Translations under genes and position numbers: made by a program | The notes under the pieces: model-generated | Seen by the model: only the letters and a program-made list of their open reading frames with translations | Told to the model about the DNA's origin: nothing | Databases searched by the model: none | Shown: positions 3,642 through 37,753 of the stretch, in pieces | How the letters are laid out: each line of letters begins with the position of its first letter | How positions within the stretch are numbered: position 1 is the first letter of the stretch | Assembly (NCBI GenBank): GCA_017623435.1 | Contig: JAGAPD010000033.1 | Coordinates: forward strand, 26,587-90,586 | Reading direction: 5' to 3' | DNA from: Clostridia bacterium | GTDB lineage: Bacteria > Bacillota > Clostridia > Christensenellales > Pumilibacteraceae | Length of the DNA: 64,000 nt

Positions 3642-3655
3642 TATGCTTATCCTCC

Positions 3656-6733: not shown

Positions 6734-6795
6734 AAGTCCTCCTATCCGTATTACTATATCCAGTGTCAAAACGCACTTCTCATTATACTACCATT

Positions 6796-6824
6796 ATTAT
6801 ATAGTATAGGTTTTGCAATGTCAA
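6796..6824 (-). promoter_or_regulatory. Sigma-70-type promoter of cassette 1 (TTGACA-N17-TATAAT)
   Basis: Minus strand reads TTGACA (6824..6819), a 17-nt spacer, then TATAAT (6801..6796), about 60 nt upstream of the gene A start. Confidence 0.7.
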
Positions 6825-6864
6825 TTGTAAAATCTATACTTTTTAATTGTAGAAAATGAAATGT

Positions 6865-6907
6865 TTTTTTTAAAAAAATACACTCCGCTGGTTTTAAGCG
6901 GAGTGTA
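6865..6907 (-). terminator. Intrinsic terminator of cassette 2
   Basis: Stem ACACTCCGC / GCGGAGTGT (6881..6889 with 6899..6907). On the minus strand it is followed by a T8 run, 20 nt downstream of the 6929 stop. Confidence 0.75.
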
Positions 6908-6928
6908 TCTCGATAAAATATTTGCTTT

Positions 6929-11527: not shown

Positions 11528-11543
11528 TTTTCCCTCCTAAATC

Positions 11544-13526: not shown

Positions 13527-13540
13527 TTTCGTTTACCTCC

Positions 13541-16500: not shown

Positions 16501-16624
16501 TCGCGTCGGTTACGGACGCGGACGCGTTACCTTTCGTAGCAAACAGCATAGTTAGTCCGCTGATTACCAGCACAAAAGCAAGCACGATTGGAACCAGAAT
16601 TCTAGTCAATTGCTTTGTCTTCAT
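13541..16624 (-). CDS. Cassette-2 gene A: N-terminally membrane-anchored multi-Ig-domain surface protein
   Basis: Likely start is ATG at 16624 (MKTKQLTRILVPIVLAFVLVISGLTMLF), preceded by AGGAGGA; the 27-codon extension in the track has no RBS. It is collinear with 3656..6733 along the whole length. Confidence 0.85.
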   Translation of the reverse strand: MKTKQLTRILVPIVLAFVLVISGLTMLFATKGNASASVTDAIASFESEYAVGTEIDVPDAYFTVGGSQVKATKVVYSPDGTSYSVNKFTPTVMGKYAVEYFLMTEGGEYLSETANFYVYNNLYEVVGKANRASYGAHPLTPNTNGIMVAINATGEFKFNQVIDLEKLNGTSPFISMYMTPETVQEMDAQEFTIKLTDIYDDSNYVRIKVTCTQDGRKYGHNVAYIQAGAAFQPTTGYEKAWNRLHQNNIYGFGQNFSFFGCDGTGETSEQFLTAKNAYGQLQLFLDHDSKKVMTQGSSTGDREIIDLDNPAHFSELWDGFTTGEVFLSITTKGLKKSHLNFVITDIGGIDLTETKLVDSSAPYVSIDTLGYDENDLPRAVVGQPYPVFSATAVDPYSGENEAKVKVYQNYGSPAQSTVSVVDGKFTPNAPGNYYVVYSATDYSGNVGEVVHVVSCDETGVDISINVDTENRVVASNVGEIITLPDATTTGGSGFVTVTPFVTDASGKAVEITNGTYQPLSNGSYTVEFVATDYAGTKKTYSYEHVVTLSKKPVFETGASIPKYFIADTEYVIPELKAYDFYNGKLEQNVSIEVTDDDGERTLGADRKVTFKVNEAGATKDMTIKYVSSNANGTTEKSYTVKVINVKKIAESGRAILDTSKYFYSEDVTVSATETDVELISNQNGTVEFINPLSAFGFALNFFTVNAGNSLGKLNVVLEDGENADKKLVVGLFKNNSGATNTLINGVGPYEIAVNYNNGEFNLGYDILTKKITIDGTNYLTVNTWADGSEFDGFASNKVRMYIEFEDVTGKATVKVRRLNTQELNSGVLFDRVNPRIYAPSDGTRMRKINEIVTVRSAVACDVLDPNVSLTVRVTDKGGNVITSVDGIALNNVPADREYQFVLNKYGEYRINYSTEDDNGNKSGTPVLLNVVDPEAPVITLTQNNPTSVKKGTKVGLANFIAVDNSTSEKELTLCCFVVRPCGLIFTVNMKDSNSFVANETGTYVLRYFACDERGNATFVDYELTVTE

Positions 16625-16696
16625 ATAATCCTCCTGTTTATTTGTTACACACCGAGCGATTTTTACGCTAAAACGCTCGACAATATATACACTCTT

Positions 16697-16725
16697 ATTA
16701 TACAAGATTTAGTACGAGTTGTCAA
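16697..16725 (-). promoter_or_regulatory. Sigma-70-type promoter of cassette 2 (TTGACA-N17-TATAAT)
   Basis: Minus strand reads TTGACA (16725..16720), a 17-nt spacer, then TATAAT (16702..16697), about 70 nt upstream of the gene A start. Confidence 0.7.
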
Positions 16726-17186: not shown

Positions 17187-20100
17187 CTATTGAGCGTTCT
17201 TAACGCTTTTTGCAATGGGAAGTCCGTCAGCATCCGTCGTCCAGAAGTTAGTATCCCACGTAGCAAACTCTGCTTTCCAGTCAGTAGCCGCCTTCATAGT
17301 GTCTCTGTCTGCGTACGAACCGCCAATGAAATCGTTAGCATTCGTAGTAGAAAGTGAACGGAATCCAGCAGCATTACCTACAACGTAAACGCCTTGAATG
17401 CTTTGATATCCATTGTGATACGAACCAACAGCAACACCGTTATTATCAGTCATATTACCAGTAAATACGGTATCAATGAAAGAATCGATAAACTTCGTCG
17501 TACCAAACGAATCAGCAGCACAGAAGAAACCAGTCTTGTCATTATTAGTGTTACCATTTTGCTGTTCAACAATTTTAGCGTAAACGTTTTGAAGCGTACC
17601 AGCACCTTTAGCAGAAATGAAACCACTGTTTCCTTTAAGTCTTGCATCAATGAAAGCAATATTTTTAATAGTACCAGGGGTAGCCATCTTTCCAACGAAA
17701 CCACCAGCTGCGCCTACAATCGTAAGACCTTTAATATAGTGTCCACGACCGTCAATCGTTCCAACGAAACCAGAAACTTGATCGCTCCAAGCAGCCGAAC
17801 CACCGTTAGCCGTTAAAGTGCTGTAATTGATGAACGTCGTCCAGTTCTTGTTATAATCAATATTTGCGCCAAGCAAGAAGTATCCACCCCATTTAGCACC
17901 AGTTTCAGCCGCTTTAGAAAGCGTACCAAGCTGATCCAAATCACTTGCGTTGTAGAATACCTTGGTTGCAACGGTAACGGGAGCATCTACGTAAATAGAT
18001 TTCATAATCTTATCGCCCGATTTTACGTCGTAACGGAAGGAAACAACGTTTTCGCCAAGCGCAAGATCACTTGCAAGAACGGTAACTTTATTGCCGTCAG
18101 CAGTATAAGTTACGGTTGCACCCTTGCTCGTTACAGAAACAAGCGTTCCTTCCACTTCAGGAAGAGTGAAAGAAGCAGACGTTTCTTCCTTGCTCAAGTC
18201 AACGATTACTTCGTCAAGCTTAATAACGTTAGAAGACTTAAATCTTGCTCTGTCACCACTCATATTCCAATAAGTGTTAAATCCAACAAAGCTAATGGAA
18301 TCAATCGTTTCGTTGTATGCTCTCTTTTTTACACCAGCGTTCAACCAGTTTGCTTGATAGTCGGTAATGGTAGGTACTTTAATAGCGTTTCCTTCAGCGT
18401 CTTTTCCATCCACAAACTTATGGAAGCGCTGACCTACGTTGTTATTAGTAAATACGTACGAGTTAGTAACAGCAGGATATGCGCCAGAGCTGTGGTTAAT
18501 GAAGGAGGAAATCTGAACGTTACCCGTGCGAATTGCGTCGTTATCGTAAAGAATAACGTTTTTAATTTTAGCAGTAGCACCACTTTGAGTAGCGATAACG
18601 CCAGACTCTCCGCCCGTTGTCGTTCTACTTGCTACGTTAAAGAGCACGTTATCAAGCGTTCCCCAAAGCGAAAGACCGATTACGGCAGCATAATTTTCAG
18701 AAAGGTTAACATTATCAAACGCTACGTTCTTAATTACGCCGTTTTTCCAAAGATAACCAAACAAGCCACCCGTCTTATACACACCACCGCTGATGGTATA
18801 GCCACGGCCGTCAAACGTTCCGTTAAAACCAGCCTCGGAATATGCAGCAGCATTAGTCGCAGTTTTCGTCTCGTGCCAAACACGCGTCAATTTGTCCTTC
18901 GTATCAATATTGTTAACTTCACTTGTACCAAGATCAATATTGTTACCAAGAACGAAGTATCCATCATATTGATCTTCAGTAGCGGTTTGACCCCACAACG
19001 TCCAAGTATAAGAAGTTTTATTAGGTGCATAAGACTTAATCGCAAGAAGCTCTTCAGCGGTATAAATTACCTTGTCTGCCTTGACAATACATACGTTAAC
19101 GAACGTCGTCGCAACGATTTTTTCGTTTGAAACGTTATCAAAACGAAGTACTACGTTATTGTCACCCATTGCAAGGTTTTCAGCAGACATAGTGTATTCG
19201 TTACCACTTGCGGTGTAAACGGCATTAGCACCGTTGTTGGTTGCGGAAACGAGCGTTCCCTCTACCGCAGGAACGGTAAACGTTGCGCTGGTTTCGGACT
19301 TAGAAAGGTCAACGAGCACGTCGTTAAGCGTTATATTCTTATAAGAACTAAATCTTGCCCTGTAGTCGGTCATATCCCAGTAAGCATTAAAAGCAGATAC
19401 GTTAACGTTTGCCTCAACAAGAGACTCGCAAAGAGGAATAGCCTTTACGGGAACAACAGTAGAATATTTTGATGCCATTGCATTAAAGTTAGTAAATACG
19501 TACACGTTAGTATGCGCACCATAACCTGCCGCACTTGCATTATCGTTAGAGTGATTTACGTACGAACTACCATCAGATACTTGCGTAGTCGAATTATCAT
19601 AAACGATAACGTTTTTCGCAACAAAAGAAGGAGCAATCTGTCTAATTACAGTACCATTTTCACTATTAGGAATATTACTTTGCTTGATATCAACTAAAAC
19701 GTTTTCAATAGTACCATACGCAGAGTTAGCAAAAACACTGGCTCCAATTTGAGATCCAACGGTTGCATCAACGATTGCTACGTTCTTAATAACAGATTGC
19801 TTGTAAAGGAATCCAAATAATCCGCCTTGTCCGTAAGCACCACCAACGATGGTATAGCCACGGCCGTCAAACGTTCCGTTAAAACCAACTTCTTTTTCAT
19901 ACCAGTTTCTCGAGGGGTTATTTCCAGCAGTCTTTATTCCTCTTATAGTACTATCACCAAGGTCAATATTGTTACCAAGTACGAAATATCCCGTCCAGAA
20001 ATCTTCTTTCATTGCGTCGCCCCAAACCGTAAACTCAACGTCTGCAGTAATAATCGTACCGTAAGATTTCATTGCAAGAAGATCTTCTGCAGTGTAAATT

Positions 20101-23100
20101 ACTTTGGTAATAAGGAACATTTCTGCGGTAACGGTGATATTTTCAACTACCGATCCGCCAACCGATTTTTCAGCAATTACGGTAAGCGTCTGGTTACCGT
20201 ACAAGGACTTAATGCCCTCTTTCGTGATTACAAGGTTTCCACCGTTATATTCCCAAGTGGGAACGGCAGTCGATCCGATCTTAACGGAAGTGGGTTCAAG
20301 AGTATCATAGTAGTTACCAAGATCCACCGTGAAGGTTGCGTTGCCGTCGTTAAGGTCAAATTCACCAAGGTTACCAAGTTCACCTACAACCATATTAACA
20401 ACGGTAAGCTCAATAGTACGGGTAGTTCCGTCAATTACCGTTGCGGTAACGGTAACCTTCGTACCAGCTTCTACGTTATTAGATGCAGTTACTACGCCGT
20501 TAGTTACGGTAACCTCAGCGTTATCCGATTCCCAAGCGGTAATAGTACCAGCAATATTGGGCGTAACGGTAACGGACTTACCCTTACCTACGACGTTTTG
20601 CGATACACTAATAGTAACGGAAGGTCCGATAAATTTTGCAATAACGTCCTTGTGCATAGTTGCCCAAGTTGCAGTTGCACCTTCGCCGTTAAGCCAGGTT
20701 ACGTATTCAGCAATAGTTGAGAAAGTTTTAACGTTTTCCGTGTCGTTCAATTGAGGATTATCCTGGAAATTAGAAAGTGCCTTTGCTGTATTTACTACGG
20801 GAATCTTTACCTCGCCACCAAACTGAATACCAATAAGGTTAGAGTAAGTTGCACCAATAAGATTACCAGCAATCATACCAGCAAAATTGGATACAGAGTT
20901 ATTATTGATTACAGCAGCAACACAGTTTCTAATAACGGCACCAGCTCTAGTGTTCGCGCAAATTAAACCGTTACACATATTCGCGTTGTTTGCATTAGCA
21001 AGCGTACCATATACCGCTACGTTTTCAATAGTACCATATAAGCACATTACGATAGCACTTGCGTTAGTAGTAACGTTTGCGTTATAAATGATAGTGTTTT
21101 TAAATACACCACTAGGCATAATAACACGGAAGAAACCATTATTACCGCTAGTCACGTTGTAGTTAGAAATGGTGTAGCCACGTCCGTCGAACGTGCCTTT
21201 CCATCCACCTACCCAGCCACTACCCCAATATCCCATAACGGGTACGAGAGTTTCATTTTGAAGGTCGATGTCAGCACCAAGAACGATATAACCAGTATAA
21301 CCCGTTTCACTATCGCCACCTACGTAATGTGTTGCAGCAATGAAATTAAGGAATTCTGCCTTGGTCGTAATAATTTTAGATGCAAGAGTTACGTTAGTGT
21401 TAAGCGTAATACTTTCAATAATTACGCTACCAACGTAAGTTTCAAAAGTAACAGAAATCTTGCCTTCGCCGATAAGCGACTTAATCTTATCTTTAGTGAT
21501 TACGACTTTACCGCCTTCCACTTTCCATGCGTCAGCAGCGAGCGAAGTGCTGTTAAACTTAACGTCAGCAACTTCTTTTTCTGCATATTCTCCAAGAGCG
21601 ATTTCAACGGTTGCACTGCCACCGTTAAGGTCTACGTCACCAAGAGCGGCAATATCTACGGAAGATACTTTACTTGCAACGAGCTCCATTGAGCGCGTAG
21701 TTCCGTCAACACCCGTTACGACAACCGTGAAGGTCGTACCAGCCACAACGGTGTTTGCTACGCTTATAACGCCTGCGTTAGAAACGCTTACGCCTTCAAC
21801 CGCGGGAGAGATTGCATAACCAACTACCCAAGTGGGCTGTGCGCAAGTTACGTTGAGCGTTCCACCTACGTTAACGACTTTATCGTTAGTGGGTTGAATA
21901 TTGATACCTACGAACTTGGAGATTGCGTTCTTGTGGAACGTGTTCCAAGTAGCAGTTGCGCCGTCGCTAGCGAGCCAAGCCGCATAAGCCTCAAAGCCCT
22001 TAAACGATTTTAAGGTGTCGGAGTCAAAGTTGCCTTGATTAGCAATGGTTTTTTGGCTTTCGCCAACAGCTTTCATGTTGTTTTCACCGAGATTGATAGA
22101 AATACCGTTGGTTACAGTAGTTTTGCTCCAACCTGCAACCGCACCACCGTACTGCGTATCAGCCGCAGCAGTTTGGGTAACTACAGCCAAAACGTTGTTC
22201 ATCGTACCGTTGTTTTTGGATATGATAAGCGAGCCTGGCGCCCAGTTTGCGCCACCAGTAACCGAGCCGTAAACTGCTACGTTTTCAACGGTACCTTCGC
22301 TATCAGTAGAAACTACTCCACCATGACCAGAGTTAGTTACGTTGAAAAGGTTAAGGTTCTTAACTACACCAGTTTTTGCGATACGCGAGAATAATCCGTG
22401 ATTACTACTAGTATCTCCGTTGCAGTTCGCAATAGTAAAGTTAGAAACAGTGTGTCCACGTCCATCAAACGTACCGTAGAATCGATGCGTCCATTGTGCG
22501 TAGTCTTTATTTGCGGTTATGTTTTTATACCAAGTAACCCACTTGCCAACACCTTTTTGAGTAGCACCCTTAAGATCAATATCGGCCCCAAGAACTACGT
22601 AGCCGTGCAATTCATAAATTTTTACACCGTCTACCCAAGCGTATTCATCCTTAATGCTTGCTTTCTCAATATCAGTAATATCTTTTACGACAAATTGATT
22701 AACAAGATCTGCAAATTCTTCTGCGGTCATAATTACCTTAGTAATAATAACGACTTTTACGGTATAGATATGGGTATCGGTCCAAAGGTCGATTTCGTGT
22801 TCGCCATAGCCAAGAGAAAGAAGAACTTCTTTAGCAAGCGTTACGTTACTTCCTTCGATTGCGGTATATGCGGTAATGTTGTTACCATCAGCATCGTAAA
22901 TTCTCTCGATAGTGCCGTCAATGTCCTCGTGCGTAAGAACGTATGTAGCGTTTCCGTTGCCGAGGTTTACGTCGATGGGCGTTTCGGTGAGGTCAACGAG
23001 CTCGTAGTTGAGCGAAGTGGTTACCACTACCGCGTTGGTAAGAGTTGCCGTGAAGGAGTAAATGCCTTCGTTTGCGGTAAGCTCTACGCCGTTTGCGGTT

Positions 23101-26100
23101 ACTTTGTCAATCTTGTAATCAGCGTTAGCCGCTACCGTGAAGGTTACGGTGTCGCCGTAGCGGTAGCCGTCAGCGCCGTAAGTTACTACGGACTGATTTG
23201 CCGTGGTTTCAACGGTTACTTCCACGGGCGCGAACTGTGCGCTTACGGTTACGTTAGCCGTAGTTGCCGTGTAAGTGTACTTGCCGTCAACTACGGACGC
23301 GGTTACGTCTACTCCGTCAACGGTGAGTGTTTTGAGCGCGTAGCCCTCGTTAGCCGTTACGGTGATAACGCCCGTCTCGCCTACCTTTGCGTAGGAGTCA
23401 ACGGTAATTTCACCGCCCTCTGTCTCCTCTACGCTAACGCTAGCGTAGAGTGCAGGGGTACAAATAATTTCGGAAATGTAGATTGCGTTGAATGCTTTAC
23501 CCTGATCAATCATAAGAGCATTGCCACCAACAGCGAACTGATGATAAAGCTGTGCAATATGAGATACAGGCATTACCACGTCAACCCATTGATTTACGGG
23601 AGCAGCAGCGCCACCGTTCCAGAAGGTAACTCTTTGAGCACCACCGCTGTTGACGTATACCAAATCCTGCGTATATAAAGGCATATCTATTGCGCCATCA
23701 ATATACATTCTAACAACGACGTTCTCATATTGCATAAGTTCGCTGAACGTTTTACCGGGTTGTACAAAAATGTTAACCCAAGTATCAGTGCTTACGATCT
23801 TAGCAACGTCTTTACCGTCAAACGTCGTAAGCGTTACGGTACCGCTATTAACAGTAATGCTGGAAAGTTTAGCGTACTTATCGCCAAGCGTCAAGTCGCG
23901 CGTATCGTTAGTAAGTCTAATATCAGTAATGTAAGCGGTAGTCGCTACACCATTTCCGTTATCAAATACTTTAATAAGTTGCAAACCATTAACGAGTGCA
24001 TCATACCATTCCTTTAAGGTCTTATATTCTGCACTGTTAGGATAAGCGTCCATATTGTTAAACCACATCATCGGGATACAAACGTTAGTCCACTCACCTG
24101 CGTTTGCGGTAACAATAGTCTTGTTGTTGGTCATAATTCTACGAGTACCTTCGCCAGTAACGTAATACATAAATTCTACGTAGTCCGCCGTCTTGAAGGT
24201 GTCGTAAGTTGCCATAACTTTCGTAAATACGTTGATTACGCCGTATTCGTCCGCAGTAGAAGTACCAGCGATTTTTGCATATTCGGTGTAACCAGCAGGA
24301 AGTGCGGGAAGTGCACCGTTAGCTGCGTCGATATCTGCTTGATCGATATATTCAGTAGTACCGTTATTAACGTAAATGTTGGAAGCGATTGCAGTTTGTT
24401 CGTTTACGTCAAAGAGTTCGTCCGAATCACAAGCCTTAATTTCGTGAATGAGAACTTTTTGAATCGTGTTAGCACTTATATTCGTGAACCAGAACCAACT
24501 ATATTCACCAGAAACAAGTTGATCGTAACAAGCAATCATATTACTTGCTTTTACCAATACGGTGATCCATTTGTTCGTGGGAACGTGTAAGTTTTCAGTA
24601 TTATTAAAGAAATAGGGATTTACTGTAGTATCTGCACCTACGAATTTAACCGTAACAGCAACCATAGCGCAGTTTTCATAAGCACTCTTTGCTTGACGAG
24701 GTGCAAAGTACAAATTGGGCCAGTTGTTACCGTCAGAACCACCTACTTGGCTGATATCAAACGATACGGAGCCGTGCGTTGCACCAGCAGGAGCGTCGCT
24801 AACGTAAGATTTACCAGTTACGTGGTTCATCGTCACGTCGTCAAGAGACGCGATATCGCTGAAGATATAAATTTCGTCTTTTGCTACGGAAGCGCGTTCA
24901 ATCGTGTAGGACTTCGCGTAATTGTAAGTCTTTCCGTTGTAAACGACTACGTAGTTTACGGTATAAGTACCACCGCCAAGACCGGAAATATTGATCGTTC
25001 CGTCGTCTTCAATGGTAAGTGCTTGACCGTGAGCAACTGCCGTCTTGGTGATAGTAGCCTGATCGGTTACGTCTTCTTCGTCAAGGGTAATCGTTACGTC
25101 GCCTGCGGTAAGAACGCCGTTAGCGTAAGTAAGCTCGCCTACTTCAATGTTTGCGGATGCTTCTACGCTGAATTCCTTGATTGCAACGCCGTAATATCCG
25201 TCAGCGGTAAACTCTACGGTGTAAGTACCAAACACGCCGGTGATAGCGCTGGGATCAGCAACTACGTTACCAGCAGGATCTTTTACCGTCATCGTTACGT
25301 TCGTAAGAGCGTCGGGGTTGTTATAAGATACGGAGAATACTTCGCCTTCGCGGAGCGTTCCTTCCGTCTTAACGGTAAGATTTGCCTTGCTAGCAACCTT
25401 AATTGCGGAGATATCAGCGATATAATACGTACCTTTCTCGGAGCTAACGGAATTAAACCAAAGTCTATATTTGCCAATATCAATATCGTTAAGGTTGTTG
25501 CTCCAACCGATCTTGAATACTTCGATATCAAAGATATAATCAATCCACTGGTCGTACGCTACGGTACCGTCGTATCCGATAGGTTTAGTGTCTTTTTCAG
25601 AGTTATTACCAAGTACCATATACTTGAGTTTTCCACCCGTGCTACTGATATACATTCTGAATACGACGTAATCGTAATCTTCGTATGCACTCATTTCCTG
25701 AACGGATGCAAAACCAAGCCAAGGCCACGTTTCGCTACTATGCTCGAACTTCGCAACGCCACTCTCGCCCTCAAATTCAGAAAGCCAAGTAATGTTGTTT
25801 ACGGTATTCGTGCCCATCATTACCTTTTCAAGGTCACAGGGAGCAACAAAGGAGTTAACTTCGCCTGCCTCTGCCGTAGGACGAGCGATAGAAACGGTTT
25901 TCTCGTACGCGTAATCCTTATCATTATAAGATACGGTGTAAATTACCTTATAGGTTGCGCCGTAATAAGGAGCGGTAAACTTGCCGTCCGTTACGGTGAT
26001 ATCCTGTTCGCCGTACTTAGCAGTTACGGTTACGGTTGCACCCTCAAGTGCGCCACCCGTAGCAGGATCGGTAAGCGTGATTGCGCCCGTCGTTACGGTA

Positions 26101-29100
26101 AGACCACTTACGGTAGCGTCAGCAATAGCTGCGTTGAATACGGGATATACGGTGAACGTTTCGCTAACCGAAACATATCCGTCAGCCGAGAACGTTACGG
26201 TATATTCACCAGCGGTTGCGGTAAACGCGTTGTTAGTAAGTTCAACTGCCTGACCGTTAGCGTTAGTTACGGAAAGCGTAATGCCTTCGATATTGTTAGT
26301 ATTGGTGTAGTTAAGAGTTACTTCGCCTTCACGGAGAACTTCGTCCGTAAGTGCAACGCCCGTCATATCGTCTGCAAGTTTAACGCTTTCAACGTAGATA
26401 GCGTTGAATGCTTTATTTCGAACGATAAACAAAGCGTTAATGTTAAGGTAATATTCGGGATAAAGGGTAATAACTCTTTCGGTAGGAATAAGTACTTCTA
26501 CCCACTTATTAGGCTGATAAGTACCGTAAGAAACGAAGTCGTTACCACTTGCACCCGAAAGCGTGGATTGCGAATAGAATTCAATTGCATTCGATCCGTC
26601 AATATAAAGTTTTACTACTACGTACTTATATTCAGCAAGTTCAGCAGGAGTCTTTACGGGTTTTGCATAGATATTGCACCATACGCCGCCAGTAATTTTT
26701 ACAACGTTCTTGCCGTCGTAAGTAGTCGTTTCTTGAGTTCCATTAGAATAAACGTTCGTGGAATCTACTGCTTTTACGTAGCTATAACCAACGGTTGCGT
26801 CCTGTTCGAACTTGCCGTAACGTACGGACGTCAAATAGTAAGATTCGTCTTCGGTTGCGTTACCCCATCTGATACGGAAGAATTCGCCACCGTTTACCAT
26901 ATCGTTATACCAGTCTTCTGCCTTGGTAAAAGGTTTAGCGGTGGACGCCGTGTGAGCAAACAATCCGATAGGAAGACGAACGGTATTCCAACCTGCATTA
27001 AGCGTTATAAGGTTCTTATTATAAAGGTAAAGCTGTCTGCTGGGTTGCGTTAAATAAATCTGGAATTCAACGTAATCAGCGTTTACGAACTCTTCTACTC
27101 CGCTCATGGGTTTAGCGTAGAACATAAAGAAGCTGTATCCGTCGTTTGCTTTGCCAGTTACTTTAACGTATGCGTTCTCTCCAGCAGGAAGTGCGGGAAG
27201 AGTGTCGTCTGCTAAGATTGCATCAGCGTCAACGTAGGTTACGGTGCCGTTGCCACCCTTCAACGAACGAACTGCTCTTTCGTCCTTAATATCAAAGAAT
27301 TCGTTGCTTTCGATATAATAGGTTCTCGTCGCAACTGCGATTTCAAACGCAGTATCGTTTGCCGTGAAGGTGTATTCGTCTACTTCTTCGCCGTTTACCG
27401 TTACGCTCGTTACTTCGTAGCCTTCGTTAGCGGTTACTTCGAAGTTAACGGTATCGCCCCACTTGTAAGCGTCCTTTTCAAGCGTTACGGTTGCGTTAGT
27501 TGCGGTATAAGTCACGGTTACGTCTTTCTTAACTGCGTATATGGAAATAACGATTTCGTCACTTCTATATTCTATTCTATAATAGCCGTCAACAAACTTA
27601 TCAATTACGCTTTCGCCATTTACCTTAATATCAGCAACTTCATAGCCATCAGGAACAGGAACACCGTTAATAGGCATATCAGTGTATCCAAACCACTTGC
27701 CTACTACTTCGCTTTGCTTATTTGCAAACTCGCCGTCGAGGTACATTTCAATAGTACCAGTTACGTCCTTAAGCTCAGTCGTTACTACGATTTCAAAATC
27801 TTTGCCGTTTGCCGTGAAGGTGTATTCATCTACTTCTTTGCCGTTTACGGTTACGCCCGTTACGTTGTAGCCCTCGTCAGCGGCTACCGTGAAGGAAACG
27901 GTGTCACCCCACTTGTAAATTTCTTTATCAAGATCTACGGTTGCGTTAAGAGCGTCAACGGTTAAGATTACGTCTTTCTTTTCAGTCGTTACTACGATTT
28001 CAAACGCAGTACCGTTTGCCGTGAAGGTATATTCGGTAACTTCTTCTCCGTTTACGGTTACGCCCGTTACGTTGTAGCCTTCGTCAGCGGTTACTTCAAA
28101 GTTAACGGTGTCGCCCCACTTGTAAGCCTCTTTGTCAAGCGTTACGGTTGCGTTAGCAGCGTTAACGGTTACGGTCGCGGTTTTGCTTACGTACTCACCT
28201 ACGATTTCGTAAACGTCAGCCTCAACCACAAAGCTATAATCCATATCTTTGTCAAGTTTGTCTATAATGTTTTCGCCATTGATAGTCAACTTAACAAGAT
28301 CGTATCCTTCCATACTGAATCTGAAGTTTTGCGAAGTAAACCATTCAGCCATATCAGGTACGGTTTGACTTTCAGTTACTCCGTCAAGCGTAACGGACAT
28401 AACGAACGTTGCTTTCTTAAGCTCGGTCGCAACTACTACGCTTGCAGTTTCACCAGCCATCGTGAAGGTGTAAGTGCCTTCGGTTGCGGTTACCACTACT
28501 CCGTCAGCCTTAACCTCGGTTACTTTGTAGCCCGTCGCTGCCGTTACGGTAAAGGAAACGGTGTCGCCGTACTTGTACGCGTCTTTATCAAAATTAACGG
28601 TCGCGTTAGGAGCGGTTACGCTTACGCTTGCGTTCTTCTTTTCAGCAATTACTACGATTTCGTACTTCTCGCCAGCCGTAGTAAAGGTGTATTTGCCGTC
28701 GGTGAATACGAAAGCCTCGCCGTTTACGGTTGCGGTCTTGATTTCGTAGCCTTCTTCTAATTCTACGCTAACGGTTACTTCGTCGCCCCACTTGTAAGCC
28801 TCTTCGTCAAGCGTTACGGTTGCGTTAGTAGCGTTAACGGTTACTATCGTTTCTTTGCGTTCAATTTCAGCGTAAACGGTATGAGTATCTGCGCTTACCT
28901 GGAATACGAAGAATCCGTCTACGATTTTGTCAAACGCGTCTTCGCCGTCAAAAGTAAGTTTTACCCACTTATAGTCTTCGGGAATATCCATAGCCCAAGA
29001 TTTATATTCAAACCATTTAGCAAGCTCTAATTCCTCGCTGGAAAGACCGTCCATAACGGATATCTTCTTGATTACGGCGTCTCTAACGGCGGTAGTTACT

Positions 29101-30587
29101 TCTACCGTGTAGTTAAGGGGCGAAGTATAATCGGATGCCGTGAAGGTGTAGGTGTTGCCGTCAACGGTAAGATCTCTACCCGGTACGGTTACGCCCGTTA
29201 CGTTGTAGCCCGTCGCTGCCGTTACGGTGAAGGTAACTTCGTCGCCGTACTTGTAAGCGTCCTTATCAAACTTAACGGTTGCGTTATCCGCTTTAACGTT
29301 TACGGTGATGGGCGCGTAAGTTACGTAAACTCTTACGTCGTAAGTATCGTTTTCAGCCGTGAACTTAACGAGACCGTCTTCGCCGATCATTCCGGTTGCG
29401 TCCTTGCCGTTGATAGTGAATTCAACGAGGTTAAAGAATACGGGGAACTTATCAAAATCCATTTCGGTAAGCTCTACTTCGTCAAACCACTTATATTCTT
29501 TAACGAGGGGTTCTTGCATTGCTTCGCCGTCAAGGTACATATTCATCGTTACGGTTACGTCTTTGATTTCGTAAGTAGCCGTTACGTCGTATACGGTGGA
29601 GGTAAGCGTGGTGGTGTACGAGCTGGTCGTTACTACTTCGCCGTTTACGGTAGCAGAAACGAACTTGTAGCCTCTGCCAGCCACGAAGTTGAAGGTCACC
29701 TTTTCATTATATATAAGGTCGCCGTCAATCTCGATTGCGCCGTTCTCAACCGTTTTGTTTACCTTAACGTCAACGCCCTTGATAAGAACTTGTACGTCAA
29801 AATTGGTGGAAACGTAATCAGTGGTCTTTACCGTGAACGTGCCGTCGGTTACGATAGCTTTGCCGTTTACGGTAGCGCCGTACACGCGGTAATTCTCTAC
29901 TGCGCTTGCGCTGAATACGATTTCATCACCGTAGCGATATTCTTTTTCTTCAAAACTTACATTGCCAAGGTTTGCGTCGCAAGTAGCAGATACTTTAAGT
30001 ACCTGACCGCGGAAGCTTGCCTCGATTACGTAGTTTTCTTCCATTGCCTCGAACGAGAATACTCCGTCAACGGGCGTAAATACTTCGCCGTTTACTTTTA
30101 CGGAGCCTTCGATAAGTTCGTAGCAAGCGTCGGGCGTAATGGTTACGGTAGCAACGTCGCCAAGCTCGTATCCGCCCTTTACGGTGATACTGCCGTTGCC
30201 CGTTACTTGCTTGTCGTAGCTTACGCTACCTTCGGGAACTTCGCCCGTTACCGTTACTAAACAGGTGTCGGATGCCGAGCCTGCCATTGCGGTAATGGTT
30301 ACTACGCCGGGGTATTTACCCTCTACGCGTCCCGTCGCAGATACGGTCGCGATTCTGTCGTCGCTGGAAAACCATACCGTTGCGTCGGTGTTGTTTTGTT
30401 TCTGTGCAACAAGCTGAATGGCTTTGCCTACTTCAACCTCTGCCGTCTCTCTCGTAATGTTTACGTGCGACGCGCCGGGCGGTGTAGGCTCGGTGCTTTC
30501 GTCGAACAAACGGTCACAGCCAACGAGCGTGAACGCCGTCACGAATGCAAGCAAAACAGACAAGATTGTCAATTTGACTTTTTTCAT
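17187..30587 (-). CDS. Giant 4,466-aa mosaic surface lipoprotein (BIG2, 13 InlB-B-repeat-like modules, CBM-like/Ig block, 5 GLUG-type beta-helix modules)
   Basis: Single uninterrupted ORF. The likely start is ATG at 30587 (MKKVKLTILSVLLAFVTAFTLVGC, lipobox), preceded by GAGGAGGA; the 29 upstream codons in the track lack an RBS. Domain calls come from repeat motifs read in the translation. Confidence 0.9.
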   Translation of the reverse strand: MKKVKLTILSVLLAFVTAFTLVGCDRLFDESTEPTPPGASHVNITRETAEVEVGKAIQLVAQKQNNTDATVWFSSDDRIATVSATGRVEGKYPGVVTITAMAGSASDTCLVTVTGEVPEGSVSYDKQVTGNGSITVKGGYELGDVATVTITPDACYELIEGSVKVNGEVFTPVDGVFSFEAMEENYVIEASFRGQVLKVSATCDANLGNVSFEEKEYRYGDEIVFSASAVENYRVYGATVNGKAIVTDGTFTVKTTDYVSTNFDVQVLIKGVDVKVNKTVENGAIEIDGDLIYNEKVTFNFVAGRGYKFVSATVNGEVVTTSSYTTTLTSTVYDVTATYEIKDVTVTMNMYLDGEAMQEPLVKEYKWFDEVELTEMDFDKFPVFFNLVEFTINGKDATGMIGEDGLVKFTAENDTYDVRVYVTYAPITVNVKADNATVKFDKDAYKYGDEVTFTVTAATGYNVTGVTVPGRDLTVDGNTYTFTASDYTSPLNYTVEVTTAVRDAVIKKISVMDGLSSEELELAKWFEYKSWAMDIPEDYKWVKLTFDGEDAFDKIVDGFFVFQVSADTHTVYAEIERKETIVTVNATNATVTLDEEAYKWGDEVTVSVELEEGYEIKTATVNGEAFVFTDGKYTFTTAGEKYEIVVIAEKKNASVSVTAPNATVNFDKDAYKYGDTVSFTVTAATGYKVTEVKADGVVVTATEGTYTFTMAGETASVVVATELKKATFVMSVTLDGVTESQTVPDMAEWFTSQNFRFSMEGYDLVKLTINGENIIDKLDKDMDYSFVVEADVYEIVGEYVSKTATVTVNAANATVTLDKEAYKWGDTVNFEVTADEGYNVTGVTVNGEEVTEYTFTANGTAFEIVVTTEKKDVILTVDALNATVDLDKEIYKWGDTVSFTVAADEGYNVTGVTVNGKEVDEYTFTANGKDFEIVVTTELKDVTGTIEMYLDGEFANKQSEVVGKWFGYTDMPINGVPVPDGYEVADIKVNGESVIDKFVDGYYRIEYRSDEIVISIYAVKKDVTVTYTATNATVTLEKDAYKWGDTVNFEVTANEGYEVTSVTVNGEEVDEYTFTANDTAFEIAVATRTYYIESNEFFDIKDERAVRSLKGGNGTVTYVDADAILADDTLPALPAGENAYVKVTGKANDGYSFFMFYAKPMSGVEEFVNADYVEFQIYLTQPSRQLYLYNKNLITLNAGWNTVRLPIGLFAHTASTAKPFTKAEDWYNDMVNGGEFFRIRWGNATEDESYYLTSVRYGKFEQDATVGYSYVKAVDSTNVYSNGTQETTTYDGKNVVKITGGVWCNIYAKPVKTPAELAEYKYVVVKLYIDGSNAIEFYSQSTLSGASGNDFVSYGTYQPNKWVEVLIPTERVITLYPEYYLNINALFIVRNKAFNAIYVESVKLADDMTGVALTDEVLREGEVTLNYTNTNNIEGITLSVTNANGQAVELTNNAFTATAGEYTVTFSADGYVSVSETFTVYPVFNAAIADATVSGLTVTTGAITLTDPATGGALEGATVTVTAKYGEQDITVTDGKFTAPYYGATYKVIYTVSYNDKDYAYEKTVSIARPTAEAGEVNSFVAPCDLEKVMMGTNTVNNITWLSEFEGESGVAKFEHSSETWPWLGFASVQEMSAYEDYDYVVFRMYISSTGGKLKYMVLGNNSEKDTKPIGYDGTVAYDQWIDYIFDIEVFKIGWSNNLNDIDIGKYRLWFNSVSSEKGTYYIADISAIKVASKANLTVKTEGTLREGEVFSVSYNNPDALTNVTMTVKDPAGNVVADPSAITGVFGTYTVEFTADGYYGVAIKEFSVEASANIEVGELTYANGVLTAGDVTITLDEEDVTDQATITKTAVAHGQALTIEDDGTINISGLGGGTYTVNYVVVYNGKTYNYAKSYTIERASVAKDEIYIFSDIASLDDVTMNHVTGKSYVSDAPAGATHGSVSFDISQVGGSDGNNWPNLYFAPRQAKSAYENCAMVAVTVKFVGADTTVNPYFFNNTENLHVPTNKWITVLVKASNMIACYDQLVSGEYSWFWFTNISANTIQKVLIHEIKACDSDELFDVNEQTAIASNIYVNNGTTEYIDQADIDAANGALPALPAGYTEYAKIAGTSTADEYGVINVFTKVMATYDTFKTADYVEFMYYVTGEGTRRIMTNNKTIVTANAGEWTNVCIPMMWFNNMDAYPNSAEYKTLKEWYDALVNGLQLIKVFDNGNGVATTAYITDIRLTNDTRDLTLGDKYAKLSSITVNSGTVTLTTFDGKDVAKIVSTDTWVNIFVQPGKTFSELMQYENVVVRMYIDGAIDMPLYTQDLVYVNSGGAQRVTFWNGGAAAPVNQWVDVVMPVSHIAQLYHQFAVGGNALMIDQGKAFNAIYISEIICTPALYASVSVEETEGGEITVDSYAKVGETGVITVTANEGYALKTLTVDGVDVTASVVDGKYTYTATTANVTVSAQFAPVEVTVETTANQSVVTYGADGYRYGDTVTFTVAANADYKIDKVTANGVELTANEGIYSFTATLTNAVVVTTSLNYELVDLTETPIDVNLGNGNATYVLTHEDIDGTIERIYDADGNNITAYTAIEGSNVTLAKEVLLSLGYGEHEIDLWTDTHIYTVKVVIITKVIMTAEEFADLVNQFVVKDITDIEKASIKDEYAWVDGVKIYELHGYVVLGADIDLKGATQKGVGKWVTWYKNITANKDYAQWTHRFYGTFDGRGHTVSNFTIANCNGDTSSNHGLFSRIAKTGVVKNLNLFNVTNSGHGGVVSTDSEGTVENVAVYGSVTGGANWAPGSLIISKNNGTMNNVLAVVTQTAAADTQYGGAVAGWSKTTVTNGISINLGENNMKAVGESQKTIANQGNFDSDTLKSFKGFEAYAAWLASDGATATWNTFHKNAISKFVGINIQPTNDKVVNVGGTLNVTCAQPTWVVGYAISPAVEGVSVSNAGVISVANTVVAGTTFTVVVTGVDGTTRSMELVASKVSSVDIAALGDVDLNGGSATVEIALGEYAEKEVADVKFNSTSLAADAWKVEGGKVVITKDKIKSLIGEGKISVTFETYVGSVIIESITLNTNVTLASKIITTKAEFLNFIAATHYVGGDSETGYTGYIVLGADIDLQNETLVPVMGYWGSGWVGGWKGTFDGRGYTISNYNVTSGNNGFFRVIMPSGVFKNTIIYNANVTTNASAIVMCLYGTIENVAVYGTLANANNANMCNGLICANTRAGAVIRNCVAAVINNNSVSNFAGMIAGNLIGATYSNLIGIQFGGEVKIPVVNTAKALSNFQDNPQLNDTENVKTFSTIAEYVTWLNGEGATATWATMHKDVIAKFIGPSVTISVSQNVVGKGKSVTVTPNIAGTITAWESDNAEVTVTNGVVTASNNVEAGTKVTVTATVIDGTTRTIELTVVNMVVGELGNLGEFDLNDGNATFTVDLGNYYDTLEPTSVKIGSTAVPTWEYNGGNLVITKEGIKSLYGNQTLTVIAEKSVGGSVVENITVTAEMFLITKVIYTAEDLLAMKSYGTIITADVEFTVWGDAMKEDFWTGYFVLGNNIDLGDSTIRGIKTAGNNPSRNWYEKEVGFNGTFDGRGYTIVGGAYGQGGLFGFLYKQSVIKNVAIVDATVGSQIGASVFANSAYGTIENVLVDIKQSNIPNSENGTVIRQIAPSFVAKNVIVYDNSTTQVSDGSSYVNHSNDNASAAGYGAHTNVYVFTNFNAMASKYSTVVPVKAIPLCESLVEANVNVSAFNAYWDMTDYRARFSSYKNITLNDVLVDLSKSETSATFTVPAVEGTLVSATNNGANAVYTASGNEYTMSAENLAMGDNNVVLRFDNVSNEKIVATTFVNVCIVKADKVIYTAEELLAIKSYAPNKTSYTWTLWGQTATEDQYDGYFVLGNNIDLGTSEVNNIDTKDKLTRVWHETKTATNAAAYSEAGFNGTFDGRGYTISGGVYKTGGLFGYLWKNGVIKNVAFDNVNLSENYAAVIGLSLWGTLDNVLFNVASRTTTGGESGVIATQSGATAKIKNVILYDNDAIRTGNVQISSFINHSSGAYPAVTNSYVFTNNNVGQRFHKFVDGKDAEGNAIKVPTITDYQANWLNAGVKKRAYNETIDSISFVGFNTYWNMSGDRARFKSSNVIKLDEVIVDLSKEETSASFTLPEVEGTLVSVTSKGATVTYTADGNKVTVLASDLALGENVVSFRYDVKSGDKIMKSIYVDAPVTVATKVFYNASDLDQLGTLSKAAETGAKWGGYFLLGANIDYNKNWTTFINYSTLTANGGSAAWSDQVSGFVGTIDGRGHYIKGLTIVGAAGGFVGKMATPGTIKNIAFIDARLKGNSGFISAKGAGTLQNVYAKIVEQQNGNTNNDKTGFFCAADSFGTTKFIDSFIDTVFTGNMTDNNGVAVGSYHNGYQSIQGVYVVGNAAGFRSLSTTNANDFIGGSYADRDTMKAATDWKAEFATWDTNFWTTDADGLPIAKSVKNAQ
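17190..23006 (-). repeat. C-terminal region of giant protein: five Ig-stalk + beta-helix (GLUG-like) modules, two with intervening BIG2 domains
   Basis: Hallmark motifs occur five times: HGYVVLGADIDLKG, TGYIVLGADIDLQN, TGYFVLGNNIDLGDS, DGYFVLGNNIDLGTS, GGYFLLGANIDYNKN. Each is followed by F.GT.DGRG[YH] and GLFG/GFVG....G.IKN. Boundaries come from my residue count and are approximate. Confidence 0.7.
23454..27320 (-). repeat. Central block of giant protein: nested duplication A-B-[Ig-Ig-C]-[Ig-Ig-C]-A'-B' of CBM-like beta-sandwich and Ig-like modules
   Basis: ORF-track residues ~1119-1436 are paralogous to ~2086-2407 (LPALPAG.., ADYVEF.IY, AGW/EWTNV, KAFNAIY.E). Residues ~1437-1764 are paralogous to ~1765-2085 (LREGEV..., YTVTF/EFTADGY...). 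Coordinates are derived by counting residues. Confidence 0.6.
27321..30227 (-). repeat. Array of 13 InlB-B-repeat-like (Listeria-Bacteroides-repeat-like) modules of 67-83 aa
   Basis: The recurring pattern is NATV.(L/F)DK.AYK(W/Y)GD.V.F.V.A..GY.VT.V.VNG.. ..YTFT. Four variant modules are interleaved (MYLDGE..KWF..). Three copies (27972..28181, 27765..27971, 27321..27521) are nearly identical at the protein level. Confidence 0.7.
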
Positions 30588-30664
30588 TTCATCCTCCTCA
30601 AGATGTAATTGTCCACAATATTTCCTCGTGCGTATGCACGCGAAAATATAATTCGTCACAAAAA

Positions 30665-30696
30665 AGTATAGCATACTACCCCCCCCCCATTGTCAA
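30665..30696 (-). promoter_or_regulatory. Candidate promoter of the giant gene with a homopolymer in the spacer
   Basis: Minus strand reads TTGACA (30696..30691), then AT-G10-TAG-TATGCT (15-nt spacer) or on to TATACT (30670..30665, 20-nt spacer). It sits about 80-105 nt upstream of the ATG at 30587. Confidence 0.55.
30679..30688 (-). repeat. Homopolymeric G10 tract (C10 on plus strand)
   Basis: Direct count: cc at 30679..30680 plus cccccccc at 30681..30688. This is the only homopolymer of this length I saw in the window. Confidence 0.95.
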
Positions 30697-30874
30697 GGGG
30701 TTAGACTAATCTTTTCGTGTTTTTTTGGCTTTTATTTTTTACTTTCGAGTATATTTTTATAAAATTTTATCGCGTTGTTACAAAATCTTATCCACAATGG
30801 CTATCAGTTCTTGATATTTTTCGTATGCTTGGAAATCATAAATTGATACGGTAGAATTTTGGGGAACAAAATAA

Positions 30875-30909
30875 CAAAGGCTTGCCGATATACTTTTGGC
30901 AAGCCTTTG
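30875..30909 (-). terminator. Intrinsic terminator after uvrA
   Basis: Stem CAAAGGCTTGCC / GGCAAGCCTTTG with an 11-nt loop, followed by a T-rich stretch on the minus strand. Confidence 0.7.
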
Positions 30910-30993
30910 TTTTAGGTGTAAATTTCGTTTTTTGAGAGTATCGTTTTTATACTTTTCGTGAATGATCGCGAGTATCGGAACACCCTTTGGATG

Positions 30994-35943: not shown

Positions 35944-37173
35944 ATGGATAGGCTAATTCTCCACAGCGATCTGAATAATTTTTACGCGTCGGTAGAGTGT
36001 CTGCTTAACCCCACTTTGCGCGACGTTCCGCTTGCCGTGGCAGGAAATCCGGAGCGACGTCACGGCGTAATCCTTGCCAAAAACGCTATCGCTAAAAAGG
36101 CAGGCGTTAAGACGGGCGACGTTATTTGGGAGGCGGAATTAAAGTGCCCGGGGCTAATTACCGTACCCCCTCATTTCGATCTATACTCAAAATTTTCCAA
36201 GCAGGTTTTTGATATTTACACGCATTACACTCCCCTCGTCGAGCCGTTTGGTCCGGACGAATGTTGGCTGGATCTTACGGGATGCGAAAGGCTTTTCGGC
36301 ACGGGCGAAGAAATCGCGCAAAAGATTTTGGCGGACGTCAAAAAGCAGACGGGGCTTACCGTGTCGGTGGGCGTTTCCTTTTCCAAATATTTAGCAAAAT
36401 TATGTAGCGATTTGGCTGAGCCTAACGATTTTTTCGTAGCAAAGAAAAATAATTTCAAGCAAAAATTGTGGAGCTTGCCCGTGGGAAAGCTTATGATGGT
36501 GGGCAAAAGCACTAACGCTAAGCTTAACACGCTGAATATTCACACGCTTGGCGACCTTGCGCTTGCGGACGAAAAGGCGCTACGCTCCGCGCTCGGTATT
36601 AACGGCGTTAAGCTTAAAAACGCGGCGCTCGGTCAGGACGGTGAAAGCGTGCGTCAGTACGACAAAAGTCGCGCTATCGAGAGCGTCGGTCACGGTATGA
36701 CGGCAATAAAAGATATCGTTGATCGCGAAGAGTTGCAAGCGCTGATTTGTTATCTTAGCGACAAAATTTCTACTCGTATGATAAAGTACGGCGTTAAAGG
36801 TAGTGGCGTGCACGTAGACCTTCGCAGTAGCGAGCTTAAACATACCAGTAAGCAGAAAAAACTGCTCCGCCCCACTTACTCGGGCATTGATATCGCGGAA
36901 AACGCTTTTGAACTTGCGCAAACCATTCTTGGCGACGCGCGCGTCCCCCTTCGCACGATCACCGTTAGCGTTTACGACCTGTGCGAGGCGACGGACGGAG
37001 TTCAGCTTTCCTTTTTTGATAAAAAGGACGTAAAGCGCGAAAACCTTGATTTGACGCTTGACAAAATTCGCACGAAATACGGCAAAGAAACGATAAAACG
37101 CGCCAACCTTATTGCACGGGATTTTATCTACGACAAAGACGACGCGGAGGACTTTTTGCCATTTAAAAGATAA
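35944..37173 (+). CDS. dinB: Y-family DNA polymerase IV
   Basis: 409 aa. LILHSDLNNFYASVECLLNPTLRDVPLAVAG and GVILAKNAIAKKAGVKTGD are typical of the ImpB/MucB/SamB family. RBS is AAGGGAG. Confidence 0.9.
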   Translation: MDRLILHSDLNNFYASVECLLNPTLRDVPLAVAGNPERRHGVILAKNAIAKKAGVKTGDVIWEAELKCPGLITVPPHFDLYSKFSKQVFDIYTHYTPLVEPFGPDECWLDLTGCERLFGTGEEIAQKILADVKKQTGLTVSVGVSFSKYLAKLCSDLAEPNDFFVAKKNNFKQKLWSLPVGKLMMVGKSTNAKLNTLNIHTLGDLALADEKALRSALGINGVKLKNAALGQDGESVRQYDKSRAIESVGHGMTAIKDIVDREELQALICYLSDKISTRMIKYGVKGSGVHVDLRSSELKHTSKQKKLLRPTYSGIDIAENAFELAQTILGDARVPLRTITVSVYDLCEATDGVQLSFFDKKDVKRENLDLTLDKIRTKYGKETIKRANLIARDFIYDKDDAEDFLPFKR

Positions 37174-37203: not shown

Positions 37204-37551
37204 TTATTTTATGAATCCAAGCGATATAAGTAAAGCCTTATCTATACTCTTCATAAGCTCCTCTCCAACTTCACCTACTCGCGACTTTAACCTGCGCTTA
37301 TCTATGGTGCGGACTTGTTCTAAAAGTGCGACTGAATCGCGCGCGAGTCCACATACTCCGCTTTTAATTTCCACGTGGGTGGGTAGTTTTGCCTTACAAA
37401 GCTGACTGGTAACCGCGCTAACGATTACGGTGGGAGAAAACTTATTACCGATATCGTTTTGCACGACTAAAACGGGGCGTACTCCACCCTGCTCGCTCCC
37501 AACGACGGGGCTTAAATCGGCATAATAAATTTCTCCGCGTTTTACTTCCAT
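37204..37551 (-). CDS. mazF: MazF/PemK (EndoA-like) endoribonuclease toxin
   Basis: 115 aa. [50 protein letters not shown] is a classic MazF signature. Confidence 0.9.
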
Positions 37552-37552
37552 T

Positions 37553-37753
37553 TTACTCCGATAGCTTAAGGTTCAGCTCACCACACTGCTCGTACCCCTT
37601 TGCCATTTCCTCCTGCTCCATATTATGCGGTCGGACAAGCATAAGGTTCAATATTTCTACGACGTATTCTTCCGGCTTTAAACTTGCTACGCTCGCACGT
37701 CTTTCCAGTTCAAGCGCCGTTTGCTCCTCAAGCGTGATTAAGTATTTACGCAT
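37553..37753 (-). CDS. Ribbon-helix-helix-type antitoxin paired with MazF
   Basis: 66-aa ORF ending 1 nt before the mazF start. N-terminus [20 protein letters not shown] and the acidic C-terminus are typical of MazE-like antitoxins. Confidence 0.7.

Follow-up and report, generated by a model that had tools for sequence, protein, structure and literature searches.

A length-polymorphic poly-G tract in the promoter spacer of a giant lipoprotein gene is a candidate expression dial in uncultured gut Clostridia

Organization of the locus

The minus strand of the 64-kb window, by which is meant the whole stretch of DNA that was analyzed, encodes a giant lipoprotein whose gene is separated from uvrA by a promoter region containing an uninterrupted run of ten G's. 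The uvrA product matches MBO5215672.1 exactly. The coordinates of the features are collected in Table 1. The open reading frame of the giant gene is intact and has no internal stops. Its product carries a lipoprotein signal peptide with a lipobox (…FTLVG|C), together with Big_2, InlB B-repeat and repeat modules. From the signal peptide, the lipobox and these domains, the protein is predicted to be exposed on the cell surface. No record matched the 4,466-aa protein exactly. A search for homologues of its N-terminus identified one true relative (P0001), the remaining matches being generic Big_2 proteins. A previous examination of this DNA, referred to here as the sequence-only reading, had placed a giant lipoprotein behind the promoter, and the ribosome-binding site, the start codon and the lipobox bear this out.

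A direct reading of the minus strand gives ccccTTGACA-AT-GGGGGGGGGG-TAG-TATGCTATACT-tttttgtgacg. The tract separates the -35 from the -10 as TTGACA-AT-G10-TAGTATGC-TATACT, and with ten G's is a homopolymer of at least about 8 nt. It leaves 15 nt between TTGACA and TATGCT and 20 nt between TTGACA and TATACT, in agreement with the sequence-only reading. Absent from that reading is the TG found 1 nt 5' of TATACT, which completes TRTGnTATACT, the Gram-positive "-16" extended -10. The TRTG is positioned at -17 to -14 and abuts a near-consensus -10 (TATGcTATACT in the window); TRTG is also the consensus described for Gram-positive extended -10 promoters (PMC2613000).

Upstream of the promoter, the uvrA gene ends in an intrinsic terminator whose predicted fold was not equalled in stability by any of 200 shuffled sequences (0/200). 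Since this strong terminator separates the giant gene from uvrA, the giant gene depends on the tract promoter, and read-through from uvrA is ruled out as a source of its transcription. Between the terminator of uvrA and the ATG, the minus strand has no other consensus promoter.

Table 1. Features of the giant lipoprotein locus. Positions are those of the window unless a contig is named.
Feature	Position	Strand	Basis or remark
uvrA intrinsic terminator, 14-bp stem then UUAUUUUGUU	30862..30911	-	-23 kcal/mol, z = -7.2
ATTGTGGATAA, upstream copy of paired motif, candidate operator	30788..30798	-	about 95 nt upstream of -35
A-rich stretch directly 5' of -35, UP-element-like, aaagtaaaaaataaaagccaaaaaaacacgaaaag	30700..30745	-	direct reading; function predicted
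-35 hexamer TTGACA, perfect consensus	30691..30696	-	direct reading
G10 homopolymer in promoter spacer, the variable element (C10 on the + strand)	30679..30688	-	direct reading
Extended -10: TATG (TRTG motif, 30675-30672), C, TATACT (30670-30665)	30665..30675	-	reading and orthologue alignment
TATGCT, strain-specific second -10 candidate	30675-30670	-	overlaps TATACT (30670-30665)
Predicted transcription start, G/A 6-9 nt past TATACT	30656..30659	-	from position of -10
Leader 5'-end hairpin AUAUUUUCGCGUGC-AUAC-GCACGAGGAAAUAU	30618..30649	-	folding and alignment
ATTGTGGACAA, leader copy of paired motif, candidate operator	30609..30619	-	about +40
Ribosome-binding site GAGGAGG	30593..30599	-	5 nt upstream of ATG
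Giant lipoprotein gene, 4,466 aa, 13.4 kb	17187..30587	-	ATG at 30587
GGGAGG-rich element	L020 6850-6970; L029 2520-2675; L023 about 3870-3960; L024 tail; L021 and L025 contig ends		

The tract stands out from the rest of the window (45% G+C), where no other G or C homopolymer exceeds 6 nt. On the plus strand there are nine C runs of length 5, none of lengths 6 to 9, and one of length 10. The longest G runs are otherwise 6 and the longest A/T runs 8. Apart from the tract itself, no G or C run of 7 or more was found in the 64-kb window, nor in 76 kb of related loci. The spacing of the promoter is equally unusual. All of the promoters that had been cited as having a spacer of exactly 17 nt were recovered with that spacer (11/11; positions 6824, 16725, 39382, 41989, 52282, 52373, 55498, 56267, 58286, 58329 and 60145), several of them with a TGn before the -10. 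The tract promoter is the only one in the window that has a perfect TTGACA and a good -10 out of register. The earlier statements that the window has one promoter out of register and one long homopolymer, and that the two coincide, are thus both upheld.

Tract alleles in related loci

Contigs were gathered through the uvrA cluster (90% identity), dinB, and the N-terminal homologue of the giant protein, yielding eight orthologous copies of the promoter including that of the window. Five orthologous loci make up the promoter alignment, and L026 and L030 were read separately. The loci L021, L024, L025 and L029 were left out of the tract comparison as their contigs end before the promoter. Scans of metagenome contigs with a 24-mer from the leader, AAATATTGTGGACAATTACATCTT, and with an alignment of the N-terminal protein sequence gave 0 matches within a collection that is incomplete, because the JGI contig L030 (Ga0451883_0157365) holds the 24-mer, at 1497-1520, and was missed.

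The window carries G10, giving a spacer to TATACT of 20 nt. L026, a 158-kb ENA scaffold with 99.98% DNA identity to the window, carries G11 (spacer 21 nt), and L023, a Logan contig from ERR15157050 with about 97% identity, carries G9 (19 nt). G9 was again found, with the same spacer of 19 nt, in a sister lineage represented by three separate samples (L019, L022 and L030, from ENA, Logan and JGI). The identity of L019 and L022 to the window is 81-85%, and L030 was placed by its sequence. The 98-kb ENA locus L020 (98% / 94% identity to the window) has an interrupted tract, GGGAGGG, and a spacer of 17 nt. The six pure alleles are therefore all of 9-11 nt (G9 four times, G10 and G11), and none of the assembled alleles is a pure run of 6-8 G. 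Together with the interrupted 7-nt allele, they refute the notion that the tract is invariant among relatives.

Tract length varies among close strains while the flanks are unchanged. Over 21,230 aligned bp, L026 and the window differ by 3 SNPs and a single indel, and that indel is the tract (G11 versus G10, both from short-read metagenome assemblies). We calculate a chance of about 5e-4 that one random indel would fall in an 11-bp target. In the roughly 150 nt that run from the -35 to the ATG, indels among the five aligned loci are confined to the tract. A further contig, L018 (Logan, SRR12529203), matches L026 without a single difference for 7,212 bp and terminates with the tenth G of the tract. 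This contig end is the exact point at which G10 followed by T diverges from G11. It fits a branch in a k-mer graph and also a failure of reads at poly-G; as a sign of mixed tract lengths in one sample, the break is suggestive.

The direction of change can be considered from the relationships of the loci. L020 is placed within the window clade by 98% identity to the window across uvrB-uvrA and by the same flanks, and it is the one lineage with an interrupted tract; the sister lineage, at 81-85% identity, has kept a pure G9. Because L020 nests in the window clade and the sister lineage is pure, the pure tract is most parsimoniously ancestral and GGGAGGG would be a derived, locked allele.

Assignment of the functional -10 element

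With two overlapping -10 candidates in the window, the orthologues are informative. TRTGnTATACT is kept in every one of them, the relatives having TGTGcTATACT or TGTGaTATACT. TATGCT is present in the window/L026 strain only, and the same positions elsewhere read TGTGCT or TGTGAT; being unconserved among orthologues, it was rejected as a general -10. On the evidence of this conservation, the functional -10 is most likely TATACT with its conserved TRTG. At the other end of the promoter, a CCTTGACAAT block that includes TTGACA is invariant in 5/5 aligned promoters, and the same core is present in L026 and L030. In the 17 nt directly upstream of the CCTTGACAAT core, 6 positions vary between lineages.

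The preferred distance between these elements was examined in several ways. The GGGAGGG allele of L020 produces TTGACA-17-TGcTATACT, a spacing of exactly 17 nt. A scan of representative genomes for TTGACAAT-N(4-22)-TAGTATGCTATACT matched 17 unrelated genomes. Although gaps of 4-22 nt were allowed, the gap was 7 nt in 12/17 and 6 nt in 3/17, which places TATACT at 17 and 16 nt from TTGACA, respectively; none of these 17 promoter matches has a G tract. When hypothetical alleles were scored with an ad hoc heuristic, the score peaked at G7, was good at G6 and G8, and collapsed at G9-G11. A secondary peak appeared at G12 by way of TATGCT, in the window-strain sequence only. Other hexamers that would be in register as a -35 for G9-G11 (ACAATG, GACAAT and CAATGG) match the consensus at 0-1/6 positions by inspection, and scoring found no good pairing. 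It had been suggested that either G7 or G12 would restore the 17-nt spacing. The first part stands, since the G7 geometry to TATACT occurs in nature as the GGGAGGG of L020, whereas the G12/TATGCT register is confined to the window strain.

The coding sequence that lies behind the long spacers has been maintained. The dN/dS of orthologous fragments was 0.22 (L023), 0.29 (L022) and 0.56 (L020), the last value being inflated by repeat misalignment. By this measure, purifying selection acts on the gene in lineages whose spacers were assembled at 19-21 nt. The intact reading frame and a dN/dS below 1 led us to reject the view that the gene is a pseudogene in decay, silenced by a defective promoter. 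Because purifying selection persists, the gene must be expressed at some level from long tracts. Either basal transcription from the extended -10 would suffice, or variants with shorter tracts would be selected often enough.

A proposed slipped-strand model for expression of the giant lipoprotein

It is probable, from the comparisons above, that the tract serves as a slipped-strand transcriptional dial on the spacer of a sigma-A promoter, of the type described for porA and tp0126. The position of the tract, its polymorphism among strains, a putative surface-protein target that is kept functional, and the maintenance of the tract are all those of a promoter-spacer homopolymer. Slippage during replication would add or remove G's and thereby shift the -35 and the -10 relative to each other, in distance and in angle. 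A tract of 7 nt would bring the spacer to its optimal length of 17 nt, and the UP-like A tracts, the -35, the TRTG and the -10 would be contacted together, with full expression as the result; with 6 or 8 nt, the level would be lower. At 9-11 nt, with spacers of 19-21 nt, the -35 would be 2-4 bp too distant and rotated and the UP-like region would also be unusable, leaving a low level of -35-independent transcription from the extended -10 alone. Populations would consist mostly of low expressers, and slippage would keep producing variants that make more of this costly, exposed protein. In L020, the high state would have been fixed through the non-slippery GGGAGGG.

The sequence-only reading had proposed a phase-variation switch. 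The strain-to-strain polymorphism in length favors such a switch, but a clean ON/OFF does not follow. Because the TRTG extended -10 is conserved, long tracts probably retain basal transcription, and the tract is thus more likely to act as a volume control. For the dial, we infer the effect on transcription, the reversible switching within a population, its rate and its selective benefit. With TRTGnTATACT so near to consensus, the -35 may be needed only in part (PMC2613000), and the difference in expression would then be smaller. The clustering of alleles at G9-G11 may reflect either a mutational equilibrium without selected switching or a sampled habitat in which low expression was selected. 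A mutational equilibrium has been reported for the G tracts of Campylobacter.

The main alternative, plausible if rather unlikely, is that the spacer is hypermutable and neutral. The promoter would then be a -35-independent extended -10 promoter, G9-G11 would give similar expression, and TTGACA would be a relic of a 17-nt ancestor as seen in L020. The extended -10 kept in all loci is consistent with this explanation, as are the pure alleles, which all fall at 9-11 with G9 in four strains and none at 6-8, and the purifying selection that continues to act on the gene with long tracts. While sigma-70-type promoters depend on a 17-bp spacer, a TGn can offset lost -35 contacts; TGn promoters in general nevertheless still benefit from a -35 (PMC2613000). 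A neutral spacer is also disfavored by the sequence that surrounds it, as TTGACA and the whole of CCTTGACAAT are invariant at 81-85% identity while the adjacent upstream DNA diverges. The tract of the sister lineage is still an uninterrupted run of G, and no other G/C run of at least 7 is tolerated in 64 + 76 kb. Parsimony, moreover, makes the pure tract ancestral and the GGGAGGG of L020, inside the window clade, derived.

It is very improbable that the length differences are Illumina or assembly artefacts at poly-G and that each strain has one fixed length. The concern is a real one, given that all of the data are short-read metagenome assemblies and that L018 and L026, which are otherwise identical, may derive from the same reads. 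Illumina chemistry performs poorly at G tracts (the "G's end" failure), and the tract in the Bifidobacterium breve reference genome was mis-called (PMC9187656). Against an artefact, there are four discrete states (7 interrupted, 9, 10 and 11) in seven independent samples handled by several assemblers (ENA, Logan, JGI and NCBI), and G9 was reproduced in four samples. A miscalled homopolymer cannot account for the GGGAGGG allele. The window and L026 are also 3 SNPs apart, and are separate populations because of this difference.

A third explanation, considered improbable, is that the main control is exerted by a DNA-binding regulator at the paired ATTGTGGAYAA motif (about -130 and +40), acting as a looping repressor or as an activator, and that the tract tunes phasing only. 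Bordetella fim with BvgA and nadA with NadR are examples of a tract that tunes the phasing of regulator sites relative to RNA polymerase. There are two exact matches to ATTGTGGAYAA in the 64-kb window and both flank the tract promoter. Both copies are invariant in 5/5 aligned loci, even amid intergenic DNA that cannot be aligned, and on this pattern the pair may be a candidate paired operator. When one mismatch was permitted, however, 4 motifs were found versus 1.5 expected, and 6/100 shuffles reached 4, which is not significant. No regulator gene is evident beside the locus, and a regulator would supplement the spacer mechanism rather than replace it. In Neisseria meningitidis nadA, the phase-variable TAAA repeat is flanked by NadR operators (PMC2791445), an arrangement that resembles the ATTGTGGAYAA pair. 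Unlike the tract described here, the nadA repeat is a tetranucleotide and lies upstream of the -35, and its regulator is known, while ATTGTGGAYAA is a candidate operator only.

Within the dial model, the window strain presents an additional and doubtful elaboration. A G-to-A change found in the window/L026 strain alone (TGTG to TATG) creates TATGCT, and the same strain has the longest tracts. The distance from TTGACA to TATGCT is 15 nt at G10, 16 nt at G11 and 17 nt at G12. The strain could therefore possess two ON registers, G6-G8 through TATACT and G11/G12 through TATGCT, which would make the tract a multi-state dial, high at both ends, with transcription starts 5 nt apart and possibly with involvement of an ATTGTGGAYAA regulator. 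If this two-register dial is true and heterogeneity is present at the level of reads, it would be the first promoter-spacer homopolymer phase variation in Clostridia, as far as literature searches show. Its target would be among the largest bacterial lipoproteins.

Comparison with known systems

Promoter switches driven by repeats are textbook knowledge for mucosal pathogens, while phase variation in gut commensals is known mostly through the invertible promoters of Bacteroides and Clostridioides. Promoter homopolymers also set the ON/OFF state of surface lipoprotein or fimbrial genes by spacing in Mycoplasma hyorhinis vlp (poly-A) and Bordetella fim (poly-C). The tract bases of vlp and fim differ from those at the present locus, and the Bordetella tract spaces an activator site rather than the -35. 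Literature searches found no promoter-spacer homopolymer switch in Clostridia, and a switch of the porA/tp0126 type is apparently new for this group.

The closest parallel is porA of N. meningitidis, in which a poly-G tract of 9-11 nt separates the -35 and -10 elements in the promoter of a major surface protein. Expression of porA is high with 11G, 2.2-fold lower with 10G and 13-fold lower with 9G (PMC3639595), and the optimum corresponds to a 17-nt spacer (PMC7864442). The common lengths of the porA tract straddle the optimum, whereas the pure tracts described here are 2-4 nt over it. The locus here also has a Gram-positive TRTG extended -10, so that some expression probably remains in the low state. 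The hosts differ as well, one being a proteobacterial pathogen and the other an uncultured commensal gut Clostridia bacterium.

Treponema pallidum provides a second point of comparison, with poly-G tracts of 7-11 nt in or beside sigma-70-type promoters of candidate surface proteins. In tp0126, the poly-G lies between the -35 and -10 and the promoter performs best with a 17-nt spacer (PMC7864442). For tprE/G/J/L, the permissive tracts are those of no more than 8 G's, and the predominant length in vivo is the non-permissive 9 G (PMC7864442), which parallels the G9 mode of the locus here. Unlike the present locus, T. pallidum is a spirochaete pathogen with multiple paralogous loci, and its variation has been demonstrated by fragment-length analysis and GFP reporters. 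A host of more similar habit is B. breve UCC2003, a Gram-positive gut commensal in which G10-G11 heterogeneity controls a surface structure, the pilus (PMC9187656). The tracts of this member of the Actinobacteria differ in that they are intragenic and act by frameshifting and not by promoter geometry; the authors mention G tracts in promoter spacers without studying them (PMC9187656).

The locus suggests that slippage is used in uncultured gut Clostridia, too, to diversify how strongly a very large protein is expressed. This protein is costly and exposed, and phages or host antibodies could target it. There is also a consequence for metagenomics. Because G tracts break assemblies, as in L018, and differ in reported length between pipelines, expression states are silently fixed in the MAG consensus.

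Additional features of the region

The leader of the giant gene has a predicted minimum free energy of -21.1 kcal/mol (z = -3.06 versus shuffles). Within the hairpin at its 5' end, the inner stem CGTGC/GCACG is unchanged across loci, with differing loops (ATAC, TCAC, and TTAC in L030). The hairpin could serve as an mRNA stabilizer or as a regulatory structure. A search of the promoter region against Rfam identified no riboswitch or leader family, and the only hit was a sub-threshold miRNA match to the hairpin of the uvrA terminator.

Downstream of the giant gene, the minus strand of the window (1680-16705) encodes further large proteins of 1,054, 660, 1,532, 1,037 and 653 aa, among them a DUF4838 protein and one with a domain that resembles the N-terminal domain of hyaluronate lyase. 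The promoters at 16725 and 6824 are both perfect TTGACA-17-TATAAT and have no tract. The region may be a glycan-foraging surface cluster with a variable promoter on its first gene only.

The TTGACAAT and TAGTATGCTATACT elements recur 6-7 nt apart in many genomes of Saccharibacteria, Paceibacteria and Chloroflexota, and the pair resembles a strong promoter sequence that is shared widely. Directly downstream of uvrA, several relatives have an extra GGGAGG-rich palindromic element that is absent from the window strain (Table 1). Two Logan contigs end at one and the same point, …CAAGTTTGACCACG. These observations suggest that the element is a dispersed repeat, either REP- or MITE-like.

Between dinB (35944-37173) and the next gene, at about 37204-37753 on the minus strand of the window, there is a pair of genes that encode a 66-aa protein and a 115-aa PemK-family toxin. 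The pair is conserved in L018, L020 and L022 and looks like a toxin-antitoxin module.
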